A stretch of DNA of 64,000 nucleotides from Chiloscyllium plagiosum (Eukaryota): positions 50,787,018-50,851,017 of the forward strand of contig NC_057718.1 in the NCBI RefSeq assembly GCF_004010195.1. The letters run 5' to 3'. Below the pieces are notes generated by a model, which was not told where the DNA came from, did no database searches, and was given only the letters and a program-made list of their open reading frames with translations. The translations under genes were made by a program, and so were the position numbers. The stretch's first letter is position 1; every line of letters begins with the position of its first letter. This document shows positions 21,289 to 51,365 of this stretch, piece by piece.

Positions 21289-21593
21289 TCAGACGTAGTA
21301 CTCTTTATCCTTATTCTTCTTGTTTTTGCTGGAATTTTTGGCATTGTTCACCTGCTTCTCTTTCACTACAGCCCCATTGGACTGAGCGGAGTTACTGATG
21401 TAGTTTCTGCTCTCATCCACATGGTAGGAGCCTTCGTCCCTATTCCTGTACTTGTACATTGCATACAGGAGGATGAGAATGCAAAGAGCAGCTGCTGCCA
21501 CAATTCCGACCACCATTCCTGTAGTGCTGCTCGATTCTCGAATCACTTCTGCTGTTCCTGGGAAGCCTCTGCCACCTGGTCCGGTGGGGTTTG
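21289..21593 (-). CDS. nrxn1: Neurexin-1 terminal coding exon (stalk end, transmembrane helix, cytoplasmic tail with PDZ-binding EYYV)
   Basis: Acceptor tctacAG at 21595-21594, phase 1. Translates (A)[103 protein letters not shown]. Neurexin identity is unambiguous; [10 protein letters not shown] and [12 protein letters not shown] favour NRXN1 over NRXN2/3. Confidence 0.95.
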
Positions 21594-22221
21594 CTGTAGA
21601 TACATCATGAAATAGGGAGGAGGTTACTACTGGGTTTTATAGCTTTCTATCATCTGTATAATTTAATAAAGGTGGGCAGAGGGATACAATACGGTATCTG
21701 GAAGGGGTTTCAAGCCACTGTTAAACACGTTTTTTCTGGCCACCAGTTTTAGAAAGGGATAGTGACAACAAAGCTTAACAGAAGCTAAACTAGGTATTGT
21801 GTGAGTGATTTCAAGTGCTTTATTAGTTCTGACTTCCTTTGCTTCTCACCATGGTGTCTGTACTTTGAAGTAACCTTCAAACATTGTTGTGCACAGTGTA
21901 GATAAATATTATCTGCTATTTAAATAAAGTTATGCAAAAATATTATCACTAGGTGGCAGTTTGGAATTAAATTACCCTACTTGTGCCTTCACTAAACACC
22001 ATGAAGGAGCTTTGCTACAAAGATAATGCCATCCCATTAACACAATTAGTGTTGTAATTTCAGGAATGCAACATAATCTTGCTGCAGACTTAAAAGAAAA
22101 CGAGAGTTTGTTGCTTTCAATAGTAAATCAAGAATGGCACATGATGAAACAAGGCAAAAGGTGCATGATCAAGTGGAGAAATGGATTCTAACTGGACTTT
22201 TGTGATCATTAAAATTATCTC
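21594..22221 (-). pseudogene. Degenerate remnant of the long SS5 exon extension homologous to NRXN2/NRXN3
   Basis: Colinear minus-strand peptide blocks EIILMITKVQLES..HAPF..VPFLI / TIESNKLSFSFKSAARLCC / CVNGMALS / FNSKLPPSD / LSTLCTTMFEGYFKVQTPW*EAKEVRTNKALEITHT / KLVARKNVFNSGLKPLPDTVL / PLPT / [21 protein letters not shown] parallel the recalled NRXN3 long insert, with stops and frameshifts. Confidence 0.85.
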
Positions 22222-23399
22222 CTGGGGAAAACAAAATGTAAGCTTTATTAGAAATGGGCACCACTGTGCAACTGCTGGTTTTAAAAGAAACCAAAAAGAA
22301 AACATGTTCAAGTGCAGAAACGTTAATATTGGACAACTTAGCAGCACATAATAAGACATATGAAATGGATGACAACTGTACTTGCTTTTTGTTGAATGCA
22401 GACATTAACATTTTAACATTTATCCTGAAAATATCAAAAAGTATGCTCACCATACAGATCAGTCAACAAATTGCCCCCATGATTTTGCATGAAGGAAAAA
22501 TGAAAGAAAGTTGTAAAAGAATGACCTTAAAACATGATTATATTTGTTTCTTGCATTATTTCAGCTTCATCATAAGATTATGGCATATCTTAAAACTGTG
22601 TTTAACTTTTACATTAGAAAACAAACCTATCAAAACATGACAGAATGTTAAATTTAAATGTTATACCAATGTACACCCCACCTTTATTTTACCAGATCCC
22701 TCTGATTTTCAAGGGAACCAATTTTGAATATTTTAACAAAGTGGTCTATTGAATTTCCTGTAAATTAAAATAAAATACAATAAAGGTCAAGTCACAGCCC
22801 AGGAACGATACATAATAAAGTGAGACATTCAACAAAGGTGGGTTATTTTCATCGTCACATGCATCAGGCTCTGAGATAAACTGTCTGTTAAATGTCAGAG
22901 CTTTTTTCAAGTTGTCGTTGAAATATTTTGAATAACAATGACTTATCTGAAATGAATAAATATTTCTCAAGTCAAATGTGTATGATATCTACACAAAGGA
23001 ATTATTAGTTAGTTCCATTTTGACATGGCTGTGAACCTAAAAAGATTCATGAAAACCATTTTTGGAGATAGCATGCAGACATAAACACTGAACCATGAGA
23101 AGGAATGGATCTTAACATGGTATGTGCAATCTTACCTTTTAAAAACAAGAAAAATAATTATGCAAAGTATCCACATCAAAATTAAACTATTGCACTTTTC
23201 AACAAATCTTTTCCCCAATACCTCAATGGGGCCCCAATAAATTCCTTCTCAGTTTACAGAAGTTCTGTTGCTTTGTCCACAACACTTGCAAGTCACATTG
23301 CCTTTAAGCCTTGCACTTACATTTAAAAAAAGGATAATAAAAGTGTGCACTCATCATTAATGATATTTGGCAGAGAAAGTCAATTTTCACAATTGATGA

Positions 23400-23748
23400 T
23401 AATAGAATCCCTACAGTGTGGAGACAGGCCATTCAGCCCATCAAGTTTACACCAACCTTCCAAAGATATCCCACCCAGACCCACATCCCCCACCCTATCT
23501 TGTAACTCCTTATTTCCCATGGCTAATCCACCTATCCTGCACTTCCGAGGATATATACTACAGGCAATTTTAGCATGGCCAATCCACCTAACCTGTACAT
23601 CTTTGGACTGTGGCAGGAAATCAGAGCACCTGGAGGAAACCCATGCAGACCACAGGGAGAATGTCTATGTGGAGCTTGCACAGTCACCTGAGGGTGAAAT
23701 CAAATCTGGGTCCCTGTTGTTGTGAGGCAGCAGTGCTAACTACTGAAC
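23400..23748 (-). mobile_element. V-SINE (HE1-like)
   Basis: tRNA-like head, V-domain (gggtttcctccaggtgctctgatttcctgccacagtccaaagatgt) and CR1-derived tail. Confidence 0.85.
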
Positions 23749-24209
23749 TCTTAAGATGAAATCACCACTGAAATCCCACTTCTTTTCAGAATATTGAGTG
23801 TTTGCTACATATTTGAAACTTGCTTAAATGTTCAGTCACGCCATAAAATTCTAAATCTCAAAATTATTTTTCGACAAAAGGAGGATTTTAGAATTAAGGT
23901 TCGAACAAAAAGAAAAAAGCACTAAAAAATGAAAATTTTTCAATAATAATACAAATCAGGACTAACAGAATAAAGATAAGCAATGATTATTATAGAACTT
24001 CAACCAGATGCAGAATGGTTTAGCAGATTAATTCATTTTGAAACTTTAAACTTTCAGCTTTAACAAATCAGAAGGATTAACGACTCAATTATGGATGCAG
24101 ACAAGTAACTTTTGTTGCAAGAAACATAAATTTGGTTCTATTGTGATATAATAGTATGTTTAATCTTGTAATTCTGCAATAAACTGAAATCTGCTCATTC
24201 AAGAACATA

Positions 24210-24412
24210 GGAGAAAGTGAGGACTGCAGATGCTGGAGATCAGAGCTGAAAATGTGTTGCTGGAGAAGCGCAGCAGGTCAGGCAGCATCCAAGGAACAGG
24301 AGAATCGACGTTTTGGGCATGAGCCCTTCTTTTCATGCCCGAAACGTCGATTCTCCTGCTCCTTGGATGCTGTCTGACCTGCTGCGCTTTTCCAGCAACA
24401 CATTTTCAGCTC
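24210..24412. mobile_element. Fold-back Penelope-derived short element with 17-bp direct repeat
   Basis: 80-bp arms 24243-24322 / 24333-24412, 10-nt spacer; GCTCATTCAAGAACATA at 24193-24209 and 24409-24425. Confidence 0.9.
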
Positions 24413-24827
24413 ATTCAAGAACATAACACGCTTTACTTTTATTCAAACCATAGTAGGGAATAGGATTCTTCTAACTACTTGCTATTTTTTGTATATTTTT
24501 CAATCACTGATTTGATAAGTATATTTAAAACCATATACTATTTACATCAGAAAAAAAAAATCCTAGGAATGTTTGTGCTTTCAGATCTTAAAGAGGAAGG
24601 AAATAAAAATTGTTTAAGAAATGAGGATATCCAAGAATGATTAAACAAAATGACTTGCATTGAATAATTTCCCAGAGTTTTCTGAAGTGATTGGGGAAAT
24701 GGGAAGGGGGTGCATGTACTAGGATTTACCTGATCAGGATGTGAATCACCTTGAGCATCTCATTTGCCAACAGTACTTTAATATCTCACCCAAGGTACTG
24801 CTTTATTAACTACATGCCAGAAAGTTT

Positions 24828-25135
24828 GGTGGCAATGCCACCTCACAGCACCAGGGACCCAGGTTCAAATCCTGCCTCAGGTAATTGCCTGTGTGAAGTT
24901 TGCACATTCTTCCCGTGTCTGCGTGGGTTTCCTCTGGGCGCTCCGGTTTCCTCCCACAGTCCAAAGATGTGCACGGCAGGTGAATTAGCCATGCTAAATT
25001 GCCCATAGTGTTAGTTGCATTAGTCAGAGGCAAATGTAGGGTAGGAGAAGGGTCTGGGTGGGTTACTGTTCGGAGGGTCAGTGTGGATCTGTTGGGCTGA
25101 AGGACCTGGTTCCATACTGTAGGGAACCTAATCGA
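24828..25135 (+). mobile_element. V-SINE (HE1-like)
   Basis: cctcacagcaccagggacccaggttcaaatcc B-box head; V-domain tgcgtgggtttcctctgggcgctccggtttcctcccacagtccaaagatgtgc. Confidence 0.88.
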
Positions 25136-25460: not shown

Positions 25461-27320
25461 CAAAGCCAATTGTTTCACAGTTACAACAATCCTGTTGAGA
25501 GCAAAACCTTAACTAAACTTAGGGTCAAAAGTGGAACATTACTGGACTGCTGTCCCAAAGACTGGACTGACCAAGATAAAACTGACTGGATTAATGCTAA
25601 GCTTTCTGAAATATTTAACAAAAACAAAAAAAATGTTTTTGGTTGTACCACTGGTAGAGGAGGCCTCCAGACAGTGATCTAAAGTGGGAAAACTGATCTG
25701 TATTTTTTTTATGAAATGTTGACAAGGAGGAATGACAATGCTTGATGGAAATTCCACCGAATTAAAAATTCACAATGCTTGAGAAATACATTAATATCAA
25801 AATGGTAATGCTATACATGGTCACTCTCTCCACATCTGGAATGCAACTATTCTGATCAACTTGTTTTCCAAACATTTCTATTGGTCCTCCTTAGACCAAT
25901 GGTCTAACCAGCACATGTGCAATCTCGTCATCACAACTGTAACAAAATTAGTTCAAATTGCATTTAACAAAGTGGTTCTATGTTAATCAATTTAAACCTG
26001 AAGACAAATCTGTGAAAAATCCATACACTTTGATTAGATGGCTCGACTTTACATAGCCAATGAAGCAAACAAATCTAAATTGGGATTTTCAATTGATGGA
26101 TTGTAACCTCCAGTGTCAGGACACTAAAGGATTGGTCTTTGTTTTACTTCTATTTCACTTTGGGTCAGCAGGAAGTCCAACTCTGAGCCCTTCATGGAAT
26201 CAATTACTCTGTTTTATATAATCTAAAATTATTGCCTAACCATGTCTCTGTGAATTTCTAAATTACATTTTGCAGTGGCACAATGGCTTTGATATATATT
26301 TGGTGCTACCTGTACTTGCACTTTGACTGAAAGTTTCAATTGACTGAGACTGGAATTCAAAGTCAGGGGTTATGCGACCTCCGTAAATTATTCAGACCTC
26401 TCCTGACTTATGATGTCAACTGAAACCTTGGAATGAATTACAGCCTTGCGCATTAACAGTATACACCCTTCAATATGAAAGAGAAATCTGAAGAAAATTT
26501 GCAATATTTGAAATAGAAACTGAAGTACTGCATGCCCATCTGACAGTCAGTAGCTGAATGAGAAAGTTAACTATTCTGACAGACTGCTTAACATGGCTAA
26601 TAGTTAATTTCTTACAGTTCTAATAAAAAGTCTTAGGCACTCTTTTAGATCCTGCTCTTTAATTTCAGTATTTTATGTTTCTGGTATGGCGCATAATGCC
26701 TACTGAAACAAACTTCACTGAAATAAGGCATATTTCTGACAACAGATTCTCCAAAAGAGTGCATCTCCATAAATATCGAGAACACACTAAATTTGACCGG
26801 GCTTTTTTGGTGCAGCATACTGTCAGATGTCAGAGTGGGAGGGGGAGACAAGGGGGTGTGTTGGGTCAGGATCCAAGAGGTATAAAGGATCAGGGATAGT
26901 ATCATTGGTGGAGGGTCAATTGATGTTTGCTCAGTTTGACAGTTATCCAGAAGTTATACCAGGATTTGACTAGTCTAACCTTTCCTGAGTAATTTCTGAA
27001 GTCAAATGATGCCTCTTTTTCCACAGCAATGAGTAGCCATGTGGTAAAATTTAAAGGTCCAGCCACTCTGACAGTTCCTGTGAAAGGGTATGTAAGGAAA
27101 GTCTGATGCTCGGTGGGTATAGTGCCAACTGGATAGTGTGCCAGGGAGCCATGTGGGTATGTGCCAAATAGATAGGGGGTGGGGACCAGATGGTTAAGGT
27201 ATGCAGGGATATGAGCTGGGAGCAGGCAGATAGAACTAGGTTAGTTTGGGATTATGTTTGGCATAGACTAGTTGGACCAAAGGGTCTGTTTCTGTGATGT
27301 ACGACTCTATGACTATGACT

Positions 27321-27655
27321 CATTCATAGGATGTGTTCTCATTGGTTAGGCCTGAATTCATTGTCCAAATTTAAGGTAAGAATCAATCACGTCGCTGTAA
27401 GCCTGAAATCCCATGTAAGCGGATTATATAAGGATAGGAGTTTCATACTCTAAATGATATTAGTAAACCAGATGCCCCTTTGTGACAATTGAAAGTGTTT
27501 ACATGATCACTATTAGATTATGTTTAACTCCAGATTTTTAAACAAATACAAATTTCACTATCTGCCATGGTAAGATTCAAAACCATTTCTAAGAATATTT
27601 GTCTGGGGTTCTAGATGATTAATGAAATGACAATATTACTACTGAACACCAACAC
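27321..27655 (-). mobile_element. Deu-type (SacSINE-like) SINE, preceded by a CR1 tail fragment (~27180-27320, +)
   Basis: gatattagtaaaccagatg..tttcactatctgccatggtaagattcaaa; head similar to 51365-51535 in reverse. Confidence 0.6.
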
Positions 27656-30600: not shown

Positions 30601-32332
30601 TGCTGCTGTATAGAAAAAGCAATAAAACTGAACACATCGTTCCTAATTAAATACTGTTTGTATTAGTTGGTCTCTTGAATCAGTCAACATAAATAGCAAA
30701 CTTACAATGATAACAACAAGGAAGTTTTTATCATGTGATTTATTGAGCAGCAACAGTTGCATTTATATATCATCTTTCTCAAAATATAAATGCAAAAACT
30801 GAGGCCGTGGCTTGATCTCTTGAGCCACAGTTGTAGAACAGGATAATTGTATCCACTTTCTCAAACAACAAGCGTGGGAGCTTTTTATTGCCTTGCACCT
30901 GTCCTATTTCAGACTTGCACTGTTGGGTCTCGATGACTGTATAATAGAACTCCTCAGTTATAAGAGCAAAAAAGCATACTCTACAGACCAGAGCCATTAT
31001 TCAGTGGCATGATCTTTGATTATCTGCAACTACAATTCCTTGTCTTTTATTGATATAATAATTCAAAATAATATTTAATTCTGCAGAAAGTTCTTAATCA
31101 AAATATTTCCCACAGAGTGTAAATTATTTATATGCTAATCTCTTGTATGCAGCTTGGTCATAGGCTGCATGATCTTCCAGAAAGATGTGGATGAAACATC
31201 TCTTCACTCTTTAAGAGTTAGGTCATTGAAGCGATATGACCTCTGCCTGAGTTGAGATCTGAAATTACATGTCAGAAGGCAGACAATTGTTAAAGGGGAG
31301 AAATTATTTCCACAAACCAACTTTTTTTTATAAATTAATGGAAGATCAGAGCTGCAGGAAAGGCTTAAAGTCCTTAAGCCCATAAAGAACTAAGGAAATT
31401 GTAATTATAGTATCATACTGTGCCTGAGATTAGTAGCCTCATTTTTAAAAAATAAAGTCCTGAATCCAATTTTCCATTTTGCAAGGAAATAAAGGGCTTT
31501 TGATCCTGGATTATGGTGGCAAACTATGACATAGTTTAAATACAGCTTTTAAATATACAGTTCAAACATAGATCTGGCTCTGAACGTGCAAGCAAGTATA
31601 CAGAAGCACTTCTGATATAGTATAATAACAAACAGGGTTCATCTATTTTTGTTGTATGTATAGAGGCTGCTATGGGCAGGCTTTTCTGTGGTGAATGGAC
31701 AACCAATGTAATAAAAAAGAACTGAAGTACTGAATAATTTCAGAGAACATAAATATTACTGTACTGAGACAGGTCAAGGATAACAAGACACTAGATAATC
31801 ATTTCAGAAACAGGAATTGACACCCTATGGAATTCCCCATCCTTAAGATTCCAAAATGAATGGTCTGAGAAATTGAAGATTCCACTGAAGATTCCAGTGA
31901 AGATTCATATGCTTCAAACCCTCCAGATCTATTTATTTAAATCAGAAGATTCAGCTGGTTCCACTGAAGTAAAGTAAATAGTTATTCAGGAAAAGTCAGA
32001 TAATTAAAACCTAGTATGCCTCTTAAGCAACCATTAAACTGATCTCAATGTATCTCAAACATACCCATCTACATTCCCCAAGACCCCAAACAACCTCAGA
32101 CTCCTGTTCCCTCGAGGAACCAAGTCCCTTTCCTCCACTCTGGACCCGATGAAACATTTTTCCACTGCCAGACCCAACACCACTCTGCCTCCATTCAAAT
32201 TCAACACTCCCAGCCCATGCTGCAAGGAACCCAACACTCTCAACCATATGCTCACCCGCACCACTGAACCAGATAAATTACACCCACCTTTGCCTCATCC
32301 AAATACTCCATCACTTACTTCGACCACTGACA

Positions 32333-33257
32333 GTCATAGAGATGTACAGCATGGAAACAGACCCTTCAGTCCAACTAGTCCATGCCGACCAGATATTCCA
32401 ATCTAATCTATTCTCACTTGCCAGCACCCAGCTTATTTTACTCCAAACCCTTCCTATTCATATATCCATCCAGATGCATTTTAAATGTTGCAAGTGTATT
32501 AGCCTCCATCACTTCCTCTGGCAGCCCATTCCATACACGCACCACCCTCTGCGTGAAAATGTTGCCCCTTAGGTCTCTTTTATATCTTTCCCCTCTCACC
32601 CTAAACCTATGCCCTCTAGTTCTGGACTCCCCCACCCCAGGGAAAACACCTTGTCTATTTATCCTATCCATGCCCCTCATGATTTTATAAACCTCTATAA
32701 GATGACCCCTCAGCCTCTGATGCTCCAGGGAAAATAGCCCCAGCCTATTCAGCTTCTCCCTGTAGTTCAAATCCTCCAAACCTGGCAACATCCTTGTAAA
32801 TCTTTTCTGAACCCTTTCAAGTTTCACAACATCCTTCCCATAGGAAGGAGACTAGAATTGCATGCATTATTCCAAAAGTGGCCTAACCAATGACCTGTAC
32901 AACCGCAACATGACTTCCCAACTCCTGTACTCAATACCCTGACTAATAAAGGAAAGCATACCAAACACCTTCTTCACTATCCTATCTACTTGCAAATCTA
33001 CTTTCAAGGAGCCTTGAACCTGCAGTCCAAGGTCTCTTTGTTCAGTAACACTCTCTAGCACCTTACCATTAATTGTATAAGTCCTGCTAAGATTTGCTTT
33101 CCCAAAATGCACCATCTCACATTTAGCTAAATTAAACTCCAACTGCTAGTCCTCAGCCCATTGGTCTATCTGATCAAGATCCCATTGTAATCTGAGGTAA
33201 TCTTCTTTGCTGTCCAATACAACATCAAATTTGGCATCATCTGAAAACTTATCTACT
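32333..33257 (-). mobile_element. CR1/HER1 LINE ORF2 C-terminus and 3' tail
   Basis: ORFs 32867-33142 (FNLAKCEMVHFG..LYRSLVRPLLE) and 32438-32827 (LERVQKRFTRMLPGL..RLRGHLIEVYKI..WNGLP). Confidence 0.93.
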
Positions 33258-34443
33258 AAGTGAATTGTTAGGAGAGTATCAAGGTAGGGGGAGTATAGTT
33301 AAGAGGAAAATCAGGAGGGCAAAAAGAGTACATGAGATAGCTTTGACAAATACGATTAAGGAGAATCCAAAGAATTTTTATAAATACTTTAAGGACAAAC
33401 AGGTAACTAGGGAGGCAATAGGGCCCCTCAAAGATCAGAAAGGCAGCCTATGTGTGGAGCTGCAGCAGATGAGAGAGATACTAAATGAATATTTTGCATC
33501 AGTGCTTACTGTAGAGAAGGACATAGAAGATATAGAATGTAAGAGGAAGTGGCGGATGTCTTGAAACGCATAAAAGTGGATAAATCCTCAGGAACTCATC
33601 AGGTGTACTCTAGAACTCCGTGGAAAGCGAGGGAAGTGATTGCTGGGCCCCTTGCTGAGATATTTGTATCATCGATAGTCACAGGTGAGGTGCTGGAAGA
33701 CTGGAGGTTGGCTAACGTGGTGCCACTGTTTAAGAAAGGTGGTAAGGACAAGCCAGGGAACTATAGGCCAGTGAGCCTGACCTCAGTGATGGGCAAGTTT
33801 TTTGGAGGGAATCCTGAGGGACAGGATTTACACATAGTTGGAAAGGTAAGGACAATTAGGGATAGTCAACATGGCTTTGTGTATGGGAAATCATGTCTCA
33901 CAAACTTAATTGAGTTTTTTGAAGAAGCAACAAAGAGAATTGATGAGGGCAGAGTGGTAGACATGATCTATATGGACTTCAGTAAGGAGTTCAACAAGGT
34001 TCCCCATGGGAGACTGATTAGCAAGGTTAGATCTCATGGAATACAGGGAGAACTAGCCATTTGGATACAGAACTGGCTCAAAGATAGACGACAGATGGTG
34101 GAGGGTTGTTTTTCAGACTGGAGGCCTGTGACCAATGGAGTGCCACAAGGAGCGGTGCAGGGTCCACTACTTTTTGACATTTATACAAATGATTTGGATG
34201 TTAGCATAAGAGGTATAGTTAGTAAGTTTGCAGATGACACCAAAGTTGGAGGTGTAGTGGACAGCGAAGAAGGTTACCTCAGATTGCAACGAGATCTTGA
34301 TCAGATGGGCCAATGGGCTGAGGAGCGGCAGATGGAGTTTAATTCAGATAAATGTGAGGTGCTACATTTTGGGAAAGCAAACCTTAGCAGGACTTACACA
34401 CTTAATGGTAGGGTCCTAGGGAGTATTGCTGAACAAAGAGACC
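33258..34443 (+). mobile_element. CR1/HER1 reverse transcriptase fragment
   Basis: PGNYRPVSLTSV, QHGF..KSCLTNL, YMDFSKEFNKVPH, GVPQGAVQGPLLF, KFADDTK in ORF 33549-34721. Confidence 0.93.
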
Positions 34444-35212
34444 ACTTATCACCTTGTACCATGGAACTGTACTTAGCTGGACCCGTGACTACCTGGTCAG
34501 GTCCATGCTCCCCAACAACCCACCCTCCTTTCCTGGCATCCTCCCCTTACACTGCAGGAATTGCAAAACCTGTGCCCACTCCTCCTCCCTCACCTCCATC
34601 CAAGGCTGCAAAGGAGCCTTCCACATCCAAAGTTTTAGCTGCATATCCACCAATATCATTTATTGTATCCGTTGCTCCTGATGCGGTATCTTCTAGATTG
34701 GGGAGACTGGGTGCCTCCTAGCAGAGCGCTTTAGGGAACATCTCTGGGACACACGCACCAATCAACCACACCGCCCTGTGGCCCAACATTTCAACTCCCC
34801 CTCCCACTCTGCTGAGGACATGCAGGTCCTGGGTGGTCTCCACTGCCACTCTCTCACACCCAACGCCTGGAGGAAGAACGCCTCATCTTCTGCCTCGGAA
34901 CACTTCAACCCCATGGCATCAATGTGGATTTCACCAGTTTCCTCATTTCCCCTTCCTCCACCTCACCCAAGCTCCAACCTCTTCATCCCACCCCCATTCA
35001 CCTATTGTACTCTATTCTACTTTCTCCCCACCCCCACCCTCCTCTCATTTATCTCTCCACTCTGCCGGCATCCTGCCTCTATTCCTGATGAAGGGCTTTT
35101 GCCTGAAACGTCGATTTTCCTGCTCCTCGGATGCTGCCTGAACTGCTGTGCTTTTCCAGCACCACTCTAATTTAGAGTCTGGTTTCCAGAATCTGCAGTC
35201 CTTGTTTTTATT
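34444..35212 (+). mobile_element. Penelope-like element 3' part (GIY-YIG + pLTR)
   Basis: CRNCKTC..FSCISTNIIYCIRCS..IGETG..AERFREHL..AQHFNSPSHSAEDMQVLG. Confidence 0.9.
35081..35116 (+). ncRNA. Minimal type I hammerhead-like motif, best-preserved copy
   Basis: ATTC-CTGATGA(35085-35091)-A-GGGC-tttt-GCCT-GAAACGTC(35105-35112)-GATT; predicted cleavage after 35112. Confidence 0.65.
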
Positions 35213-47789: not shown

Positions 47790-47877
47790 CTAAACCACCA
47801 GAGCTTGGCTCACATTCATCAATGTCCTCATCATCACTAGGACATTCAGCAGAGGCAACCAATAGATCATCTGTGCT
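47790..47877 (-). CDS. nrxn1: Neurexin-1 penultimate exon (Cys-loop/acidic stalk, SS5 donors)
   Basis: Not in the ORF track. Pyrimidine tract + cAG (47879-47878); 88 nt encoding [29 protein letters not shown]+G; donor GTGAGT at 47789. Phase 1 joins the terminal exon to give PSSGGLANPT as in NRXN1. Alternative donor GTGGTT at 47798 removes GGL. Confidence 0.95.
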
Positions 47878-49435: not shown

Positions 49436-51365
49436 TACAGTCATGGAGTCACAGAGATATACAGCATGGAAACACACCCTGTGGTCCCACTCGTCCATGA
49501 TGACCGGATATCCTAACCTAAACTAGTCCCATTTGTCAGCACTTGGACCATATCTCTCCAAACCCTCCCTATTCATATATCCATCCAGATGCCTTTCAAA
49601 TGTTGCAATTGTACCAGCCTCCATCACTTCCTCTGGCAGCTCATTCCATACCTGCATCACCTCTGTGTGAAAATTTTGCCCCTTAGGTCCCTTTTATATC
49701 TTTCCCCTCTCACCCTAAACCTATGCCCTCTAGATCTGAACTTCCCCACTCCATTTGTCTATTTATCCTATCCGTGCCCCTCATAATTTTGTAAACCTCT
49801 ATAAGATCACCCCTCAGCCTCTGACTCTCCAGGGAAAAGAGCTCCAGTCTTTTCAGCCTCTCCCTGTAGCTCAAATCCTTAAACCCTGGCAATAACCTTG
49901 GAAATCTTTTCTGAACCCTTCCAATAGGAAGGAAACCAGAACTGCACGCAATATTCCAAAAGTGACCTAACCAATGTAACATGATCGCCCAACTCCTATA
50001 TTCCAATACTCTGACCAATAAAGGAAAACATACCAAACACATTCTTTACTATCCTATTTACCTGCAACTCTACTTTCAAGGAATATGAATCTGCACTCCA
50101 AGGTCTCTTTGTTCAGCAACAGACCCTAGGACCTTACCATTAAGTGTATAAGTACTGCTACGATTTGCTTTCCCAAAATGCAGCATCTCACATTTATCTA
50201 AATTAAACTCTATTTGCCACTTCTCAGCCCATTGGCCCATCTGGTCCAGATCCTGTTGTAATCTGAGGTAACAATCTTCGCTGTCCACTACACCTCCAAT
50301 TTTGGTGTCATCTGCAAACTTACTAACTGTACCTCTTATGCTCGCATCCAAATCATTTCTGTAAATGACAAAAAGTAGAGGACCCCGCACCGATCCTTGT
50401 GGCACTCTACTGGTCACAGGCCTCCAGTCTGAAAAACAGCCCTCGACCACCACCCTCTGTCTTCTACCTTTGAGCCAGTTCTGTATCCAAATGGCGAGTT
50501 CTCCTGTACTCCACGAGATCTAACCTTGCTAACCAGTCTCCCATGGGGTACTTTGTCGAACACCTTACTGAAGTCCAAATAGAGCACCTCCATCGCTCTG
50601 CCCTCATCAGTCTTCTTTGTTAGTTTTTCAAAAAACTCAGTTAAGTTCATGAGACATAATTTCCCACACACAAAGCCATATTGACTATCCCTAATCAGTC
50701 CTTGCCTTTCTAAATACATGTAAATCCTGTCCCTTAGGATTCCCTCCAACAATATGCCCACCATTGGCGTCAGGCTCACCGGTCTATAGTTCCCTTGGCT
50801 TTTTCTTACCCGCTTTCTTAAATAATGGCAGCACGTTAGTCAACCTCCAATCTTCCAGCACCTCACCTGTGTCTATCGATGATACAAATATCTCAGCAAG
50901 AGGCCCAGCAATCACTTCTCTAGCTTCCCACAGAGATCTACAGTACACCTGACCAGGTCCTGGGGATTTATCCATCTTTATGCGTTTCAAAACATCCTGC
51001 ACCTCCTCCTCTATAATATGGACATTTTTCAAGATGTCACCATCTCTTTCCCTACATTCTATATCTTCCATGTCCTTCTCCACAGTAAACACTGATGCAA
51101 AACACTCATCTTGTAATAGCCCCATCTCCTGCAGCTCCACACATAGGCTGCCTTGCTGGTCTTTGAGGGGCACTATTCACTCCCTAGTTACCCTTTTATC
51201 CTTAATTTACTTATTAAAAACCCTTTGCATTCTCCTTAACTCGATTTTCCAAAGCTATCTCATGCCCTCTTTTTGCCCTCCTGATTTCCCTCTTAAGTTT
51301 CCTCTTTCTACTGTTATCCTCTTCTGAGGATTCTCTTGCTATGTTCTGTCTATACCTAACATATG
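49436..51365 (-). mobile_element. CR1/HER1 LINE ORF2 (RT + tail), frameshifted
   Basis: ORFs 50784-51173, 50414-50779 (YLDFSKVFDKVPH), 50076-50453 (VPQGSVRGPLLF, KFADDTK), 49710-50042. Confidence 0.93.

Follow-up and report, generated by a model that had tools for sequence, protein, structure and literature searches.

Splice site 5 (SS5) is the position at which the three neurexins differ most: NRXN1 has three residues there, NRXN2 a very long insert, and NRXN3 a GPI exon together with the 25a and 25b segments. For mouse Nrxn3, Hauser et al. (2022, PMC9275415) divide AS5 into exon 23, the stop-bearing GPI exon 24 and an exon 25 that has three acceptors, a, b and c. In the same paper, C1ql2/3 is bound by the 25b forms (citing Matsuda 2016); 25a, studied with a 3'UTR luciferase reporter, is a repressor of translation whose conservation has no clear reason. 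The stop-bearing SS5 exon is called unique to Nrxn3 in a review (PMC9812575), and mammalian NRXN1 SS5 is given as a three-residue GGL insert in another source (PMC8024894). A further review puts Nrxn1 and Nrxn3 closest to each other (PMC12665717); since extensions are found in NRXN2 and NRXN3, that relationship already implies a loss in NRXN1. Loss of the extension confirms more than it surprises, because it could be guessed from the sharing of the extension by NRXN2 and NRXN3.

Here we describe the last intron of a shark NRXN1 gene, which retains a fossil of the NRXN3-type AS5 layout that is real and apparently unreported. Among the listed papers on neurexins and exon relics, judged by their listings and the openings of their abstracts, none describes it, though the gene-structure papers of Tabuchi and Sudhof (2002), Rissone (2007) and Treutlein (2014) could mention it. 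The relic provides direct sequence evidence that loss in NRXN1 rather than gain in NRXN3 accounts for the bulk of the differences at SS5. Coordinates are positions in the window, the whole 64-kb stretch of DNA that was analysed (contig C9:50787018-50851017 of a 3.56-Gb genome).

Identity of the gene

On its minus strand the window carries a neurexin's two final exons, with ~26 kb of intron between them (Table 1). The Cys-loop exon has two donors 9 nt apart (exon end at 47799 or 47790), the longer form adding GGL. The terminal exon encodes the juxtamembrane stalk, transmembrane helix and cytoplasmic tail, with its stop at 21291-21289. In a protein search it showed 98-100% identity to shark and ray proteins named neurexin-1a, and nearly all named matches among the 120 listed were neurexin-1. 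A tree of 21 rows was built from the LNS6-to-tail region with the SS4 and SS5 inserts excluded and a Hippocampus row omitted; an earlier tree of 19 rows had neither lamprey nor the genome's own NRXN2. In the 21-row tree, the gene joined Scyliorhinus, Mobula and Callorhinchus NRXN1 with support of 95/98, NRXN1 as a whole receiving only 66/76. Two other neurexin terminal exons are present in the genome, one on contig C10 that groups with NRXN3 and one on contig C45 that groups with NRXN2, within open frames of 355 and 437 codons, respectively. A deiodinase gene lies ~246 kb from the C10 neurexin gene, and we take DIO2 to be a neighbour of NRXN3. The neighbourhood of NRXN1 is that of FSHR/LHCGR; a synteny search with PF12369 found no match anywhere, and its controls were likewise blank. 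Judged by these sequence relationships, the gene in the window is NRXN1, and the phylogenetic check suggested in the initial annotation, which had called it NRXN1-type, bears this out.

Table 1. Features of the NRXN1 locus, in window coordinates
Feature	Position	Strand	Remarks
Cys-loop exon, penultimate, of NRXN1 (L024)	47790..47877	-	Equivalent of Nrxn3 exon 23
Remnant of the NRXN3 exon-24 (GPI-anchor) cassette, 3' end	22463..22553	-	73/89 columns identical (82%) to the C10 gene; ends at the donor of that exon
Donor-like GTGAGC	22445..22450	-	Putative; ~11 nt downstream of the NRXN3 exon-24 donor position
25a-type acceptor AG (22223-22222) and decayed exon-25a-like segment (22221-21913, 309 nt)	21913..22223	-	From alignment; mouse 25a boundary
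25b-type acceptor AG (21914-21913) and decayed exon-25b-like segment (21912-21594, 319 nt)	21594..21914	-	From alignment; mouse 25b boundary
Terminal coding exon of NRXN1, live	21289..21593	-	25c equivalent; spliced start seen in organism D
Second live acceptor in the NRXN1 terminal exon	21576..21577	-	18 nt inside the exon; removes six residues

The second acceptor in the terminal exon is a further SS5 option in cartilaginous-fish NRXN1: a spliced contig of organism C, at a depth of 229, has the junction, and named proteins of Callorhinchus, Hemitrygon and Scyliorhinus also have the form shorter by six residues. The paired exon-23 donors responsible for GGL are present both in NRXN1 and in shark NRXN3 (L027, C10:8557494-8557589) and are absent from the NRXN2 exon (L026). 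Because shark NRXN3 also has them, the GGL insert of NRXN1 is likely a shared ancestral feature. The shark NRXN2 gene is spread over five contigs (C45, C97272, C98073, C99304 and C101967; L003), and has GC-rich fourfold sites (GC4 ~0.8); both its extension and its tail contain low-complexity expansions. Much of the last intron of NRXN1, and sequence beyond the Cys exon, is filled by reverse-transcriptase-like fragments and short repeats (~23400-25130, 27200-27650, 32330-35200 and 50080-51180).

A relic of the long SS5 extension

Directly abutting the NRXN1 terminal exon on the minus strand is a relic of 628 nt (22221-21594). It was compared with the open extension of the genome's own NRXN3 gene on C10 (L002; 206 codons, 618 nt). 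In a global DNA alignment, the 627 nt before the live acceptor match the NRXN3 extension from end to end, with 361/569 columns identical (63%). The score is 206; 300 dinucleotide shuffles average -37 (sd 14.5, maximum 14.8), and the best of 97 further segments of 627 nt taken from the window reaches 15.8. When frameshifts are allowed for, aligning the relic to a profile built from 12 intact extensions gives 63.8 (80 shuffles: -80.8 +/- 8.9), with 66 of 193 aligned codons identical; the best path passes ~7 frameshifts and 4 stops, counts that depend on the penalties. The two methods put the colinear alignment at z 16-17, and the 25a-like and 25b-like halves are each significant alone (177/270 and 185/300 identical, respectively). 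Searching the 64-kb window with the NRXN3 extension gave E 2e-5 by tblastn and E 1e-7 by blastn. The tBLASTn and frameshift-aware checks that the initial annotation had proposed return a significant colinear alignment. All of the peptide blocks that it had quoted as colinear do occur, in the order given, in three minus-strand frames of the relic, and a further aligning first block (~22221-22125) precedes them. Its reading of the segment as a fossil of an NRXN2/NRXN3 extension holds for NRXN3, for which local z values are 18-35, but only marginally for NRXN2, whose extensions give z -0.4 to 3.3.

Genome-wide, the relic is far less conspicuous. A plain protein search of the whole genome with the extension ranked it fourth, at E 4.18; a whole-genome DNA search with the relic as query found only itself and no paralogue; and nhmmer with a DNA profile of five intact extensions gave the relic a non-significant E of 0.93. 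Because such searches rank the relic weakly, the signal rests on full-length colinearity at the expected position. The GC content of the relic, 36%, is close to that of the intron (32%) and well away from that of the NRXN3 extension (55%).

The acceptors of NRXN3 can be placed on this alignment. Boundaries in Table S4 of PMC9275415 match the C10 gene and were used to locate the corresponding AGs in the window, and AG is kept at all three acceptor positions, 25a, 25b and 25c. The 25b-like segment ends in the live acceptor AG (21595-21594) and holds TGA 21848-21846 and TAA 21639-21637, both where the initial annotation had put them. If spliced in, the predicted frames would reach a stop after 17 codons from the 25a acceptor and after 42 codons from the 25b acceptor. 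A live coding SS5 extension has an open frame continuous with the transmembrane exon, and the relic has none.

One explanation for the stops and indels is that they are assembly errors and that the extension is a live exon. The initial annotation had asked for the stops to be confirmed in raw reads, and the breaks recur in independent samples: among 24 runs listed, samples of the same organism other than the source, from 2 studies, contain 0.87-1.00 of 103 sampled words. In organism B, a related species, a single DNA contig spans 20201-23200 and preserves the broken state. It carries 36 substitutions (33 listed) and 12 gap letters, every one of the latter being accounted for. Within the relic its one indel is an additional insertion of 2 nt, and both stops are untouched by the listed changes. 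Organism C has two relic contigs (21679-21830 and 21955-22187), both gap-free against the window. In addition, identity to NRXN3 at invariant codons is only 32/71. Together these data leave the assembly-error explanation with next to no probability.

Splicing around the relic

Evidence that the relic is skipped came from spliced contigs. In an RNA-like run of organism C, the terminal exon reaches a depth of 229, and the relic is found only in unspliced pieces at 0.8-5.3; the upstream intron lies at 2.5-8.7, except for one bin at 25.5 that is raised by an unrelated record. In organism D, the depth is ~8 over the terminal exon and 0 over the relic. The Cys exon is joined to the 25c acceptor in organism D and to the acceptor 18 nt further in in organism C, with the longer exon-23 donor (GGL) used each time. 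Among the junctions listed for the contigs of organisms C and D, which leave out 14 loose ends, none falls at 22221, 21912 or 22450, contigs being prone to drop rare forms. In a single-cell run of the source species (X22), the 53 reads were all partial low-complexity matches that give no real coverage. Both related species have spliced contigs that leave out the relic.

We consider it about 80% probable that the relic is an inert, non-coding vestige, homologous to the NRXN3 25a/25b extension and removed with the last intron. A single pre-duplication neurexin would have had two exon-23 donors, a stop-bearing exon 24, and acceptors 25a, 25b and 25c. After genome duplication, every other site would have fallen out of use in NRXN1, leaving it the 25c acceptor and the exon-23 donors. 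The reading frame would then have been released from selection, with a low shark substitution rate leaving the sequence readable. The shark mutation rate is very low, 7e-10 per base per generation (PMC10587355), which makes long survival of a readable relic plausible. Of the relic, probably only the last 30-40 nt still matter, as they would contain the branch point and pyrimidine tract of the live acceptor.

A remnant of exon 24

Upstream of the relic is a second, more unexpected piece, overlooked by the initial annotation: a remnant of the 3' end of exon 24. Its alignment score was reached by 0/500 shuffles, and 36/40 positions are identical in its core. The only other match found in the 3.56-Gb genome is C10:8519089-8519153 (E 2.3e-6). 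When the last introns of NRXN1 and NRXN3 were compared whole, the 100 local matches comprised the Cys exon, 98 many-to-many matches of repeat type, and 22548-22405. The GT of the NRXN3 exon-24 donor is not kept in the NRXN1 remnant. The GPI-coding part of exon 24 gave no significant match in 22222-23460, where 437/500 shuffles scored as high. No exon-24 end was found in the 724 nt examined upstream of the NRXN2 extension. Exon 24 of the C10 gene was identified from Table S4 and the Fig S1 text of PMC9275415; in shark NRXN3 it is intact, at 705 nt (C10:8519792-8519088; L029), with a 36-codon stop-ended hydrophobic frame similar to the mouse GPI signal. The 3' element of exon 24 looks conserved in teleosts, since a peptide read from it opens two teleost gene models of NRXN3 type (P0248 and P0353).

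The remnant, at 82% identity, is better kept than the former coding part at 63%, which fits continuing constraint. This raises an alternative with the same origin, in which use at the RNA level persists: by analogy with exon 24 and 25a of mouse Nrxn3, an exon-24-like cassette or the 25a acceptor might be used in some neurons to give a truncated, secreted or a silenced NRXN1 message. The flanking intron is unalignable between the paralogues that share the remnant, all acceptor AGs are kept, and a donor-like site is nearby. Moreover, an organism C contig covering 22197-22988 is ~3x deeper than intron further upstream (8.65 vs 2.5-2.7), and PMC9275415 leaves unexplained the conservation of a mouse segment, 25a, that represses translation. 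However, that contig is unspliced through both 22450 and 22221, with no junction there among those listed, and the part of exon 24 that would encode the GPI anchor is not recognisable. The sites with which the exon-24 end pairs best as RNA are not homologous between the two paralogues, none being shared, and Rfam gave no match. Close relatives also show no significant substitution deficit in the relic: organism B has 6/628 substitutions in the relic vs 20/979 in the upstream intron (p 0.11), and organism C 9/385 vs 18/1003 (p 0.52), both comparisons being of low power. Persisting RNA-level use is accordingly judged unlikely. The same doubt applies to its broader form, in which the whole Nrxn3 AS5 system (GPI exon 24, silencing 25a and C1ql-binding 25b) would have been present in the ancestral vertebrate neurexin and shark NRXN1 would still use the non-coding remains, its frame lost and its RNA function kept. 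As an element of 91 nt kept in two paralogues, the remnant is a candidate for unexplained nucleotide-level control of the SS5 region.

Origin of the extension and age of its probable loss

The extension is open in both of the other neurexins of this genome, NRXN2 (243 codons) and NRXN3 (206 codons), and broken in NRXN1, which supports the proposal in the initial annotation that NRXN1 lost it as coding sequence and kept a readable relic. In a sea lamprey neurexin model (P0265, UniRef100_S4R589), poor in its first part, the extension is present and shows NRXN3-like motifs (E 6.8e-8). Among 26 representative matches to the extension, 13 include the tail, 6 being NRXN3-type, 6 NRXN2-type and 1 lamprey; 0/12 of the tailed gnathostome matches have an NRXN1-type tail. 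Because the segment occupies one position in each of the three paralogues, and because a lamprey neurexin has it as well, the extension most likely predates the neurexin duplications, again as had been suggested. Five NRXN3-type, teleost-like frames (P0251, P0252, P0261, P0263 and P0266) leave the extension frame midway, owing either to sequence errors or to parallel decay in one teleost duplicate.

A different origin would be that NRXN1 never coded for the segment, an ancestral intron having been exonised only in the line to NRXN2 and NRXN3. The tree is compatible with this, since a clade of NRXN2 and NRXN3 is not rejected (AU p 0.44 for both alternative branching orders of the paralogues in the 21-row tree). 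The identity between relic and NRXN3 by codon position (63/71/56%) would also be expected with constraint on the NRXN3 side only. Nevertheless, the extension of the lamprey neurexin already has NRXN3-like motifs, and Nrxn1 and Nrxn3 are stated to be the closer pair in PMC12665717. In addition, apart from the exon-24 end, the remainder of the 26-kb intron has nothing but repeats of mobile-element type in common with the NRXN3 intron, so a never-coding intron of such age is not expected to align. Exonisation is highly improbable on these grounds.

The much closer resemblance of the relic to NRXN3 than to NRXN2 could alternatively reflect a segment copied later from NRXN3 into the NRXN1 intron, by gene conversion or ectopic insertion, and then decayed. 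Several observations argue against a later copy. The relic keeps its register relative to the native 25c acceptor; upstream, in native order, comes the exon-24 end, with unalignable intron between them. The NRXN3-like motifs are common to lamprey, so they look ancestral, and shark NRXN2 is GC-shifted (GC4 ~0.8). Of the bird-type NRXN1 frames, furthermore, 5/10 keep the same last 12 codons. A later copy is, if anything, even less probable than exonisation, and the preferred reading remains a vestige inherited in place.

Two types of evidence bear on when NRXN1 lost the extension. The first is its distribution. None of 120 NRXN1-type proteins (the best of 8000 scored, sharks to mammals, with many isoforms per species, in annotated frames only) has a long extension; cichlid gene models with 41-55-residue inserts (P0098 and P0111) and a goby tandem duplication (P0002 and P0003) were excluded from the long forms. 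A search for an intact long NRXN1 sharing one frame of the relic gave no match at E <=10 among 33 candidates, and the same search missed NRXN3 itself. In frames that run into the intron, the last 12 codons before the acceptor are kept in 5/10 bird-type, 1/3 other tetrapod, 0/32 mammal-type and 0/20 fish-type cases; the named turkey protein P0286 has 7/12 codons identical. The chance of at least 5 identities in 10 codons is 0.0002, but the bird trace is unable to date the loss because it overlaps the splice signal.

A metagenome scan returned 7 loci, teleost-like by sequence, two of them with a full NRXN1-type last intron (~670 nt) and a third with 67 nt upstream. Neither of the two complete introns shows similarity to the relic or to the extension (z no higher than 1.1). 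The two (L004:518-1190 and L010:2334-3001) are 80% identical to each other (487/609) and have a common acceptor-like site. A match between the upstream intron of the window and one of the teleost introns was rejected, since 15/500 shuffles were as good (144/500 for the other intron).

The second type of evidence is divergence. At the first and second positions of 71 invariant codons, the relic has diverged by ~0.45 per site (0.30-0.62), against an NRXN1-NRXN3 fourfold-site distance of 1.96, which is near-saturated and has a lower bound of 1.29. The relic divergence is less than half of the fourfold-site distance, suggesting either that the loss came well after the duplication or that some constraint persisted. 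It is compatible with a single early loss and with several losses alike. We prefer one loss before the split of sharks from bony vertebrates, at somewhat better than even odds; separate losses in different NRXN1 lineages fall a little short of even.

Comparison with known systems

The NRXN1 locus is most similar to mouse Nrxn3 AS5, with the same order of parts and the same three acceptor positions, and shark NRXN3 has all of these parts intact. Unlike mouse Nrxn3, shark NRXN1 has a 25a/25b region broken by frameshifts and stops, and of exon 24 it retains nothing recognisable but the 3' end; the only acceptors seen in use are that of 25c and another 18 nt deeper in the exon. The long SS5 insert of NRXN2 is a homologous extension in the same place, which is open in this genome and can be aligned with NRXN3 extensions; however, its direct similarity to the relic is only marginal, and it has no exon-24 end in the upstream stretch searched. 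With mammalian NRXN1, the shark gene has in common the GGL insert, made through the second exon-23 donor. One difference is that mammal-type frames have no trace of the extension before the acceptor, whereas the shark gene keeps all of it in readable form.

The relic also has parallels with vestigial exons, or pseudoexons, in which a splice option is lost in one duplicate after genome duplication and the decayed sequence is left in place. The NRXN1 relic would likewise represent a splice option lost in one duplicate, with the decayed sequence in its original position. It differs in that it adjoins a live exon as an alternative 3' extension, and in its likely age of hundreds of millions of years.
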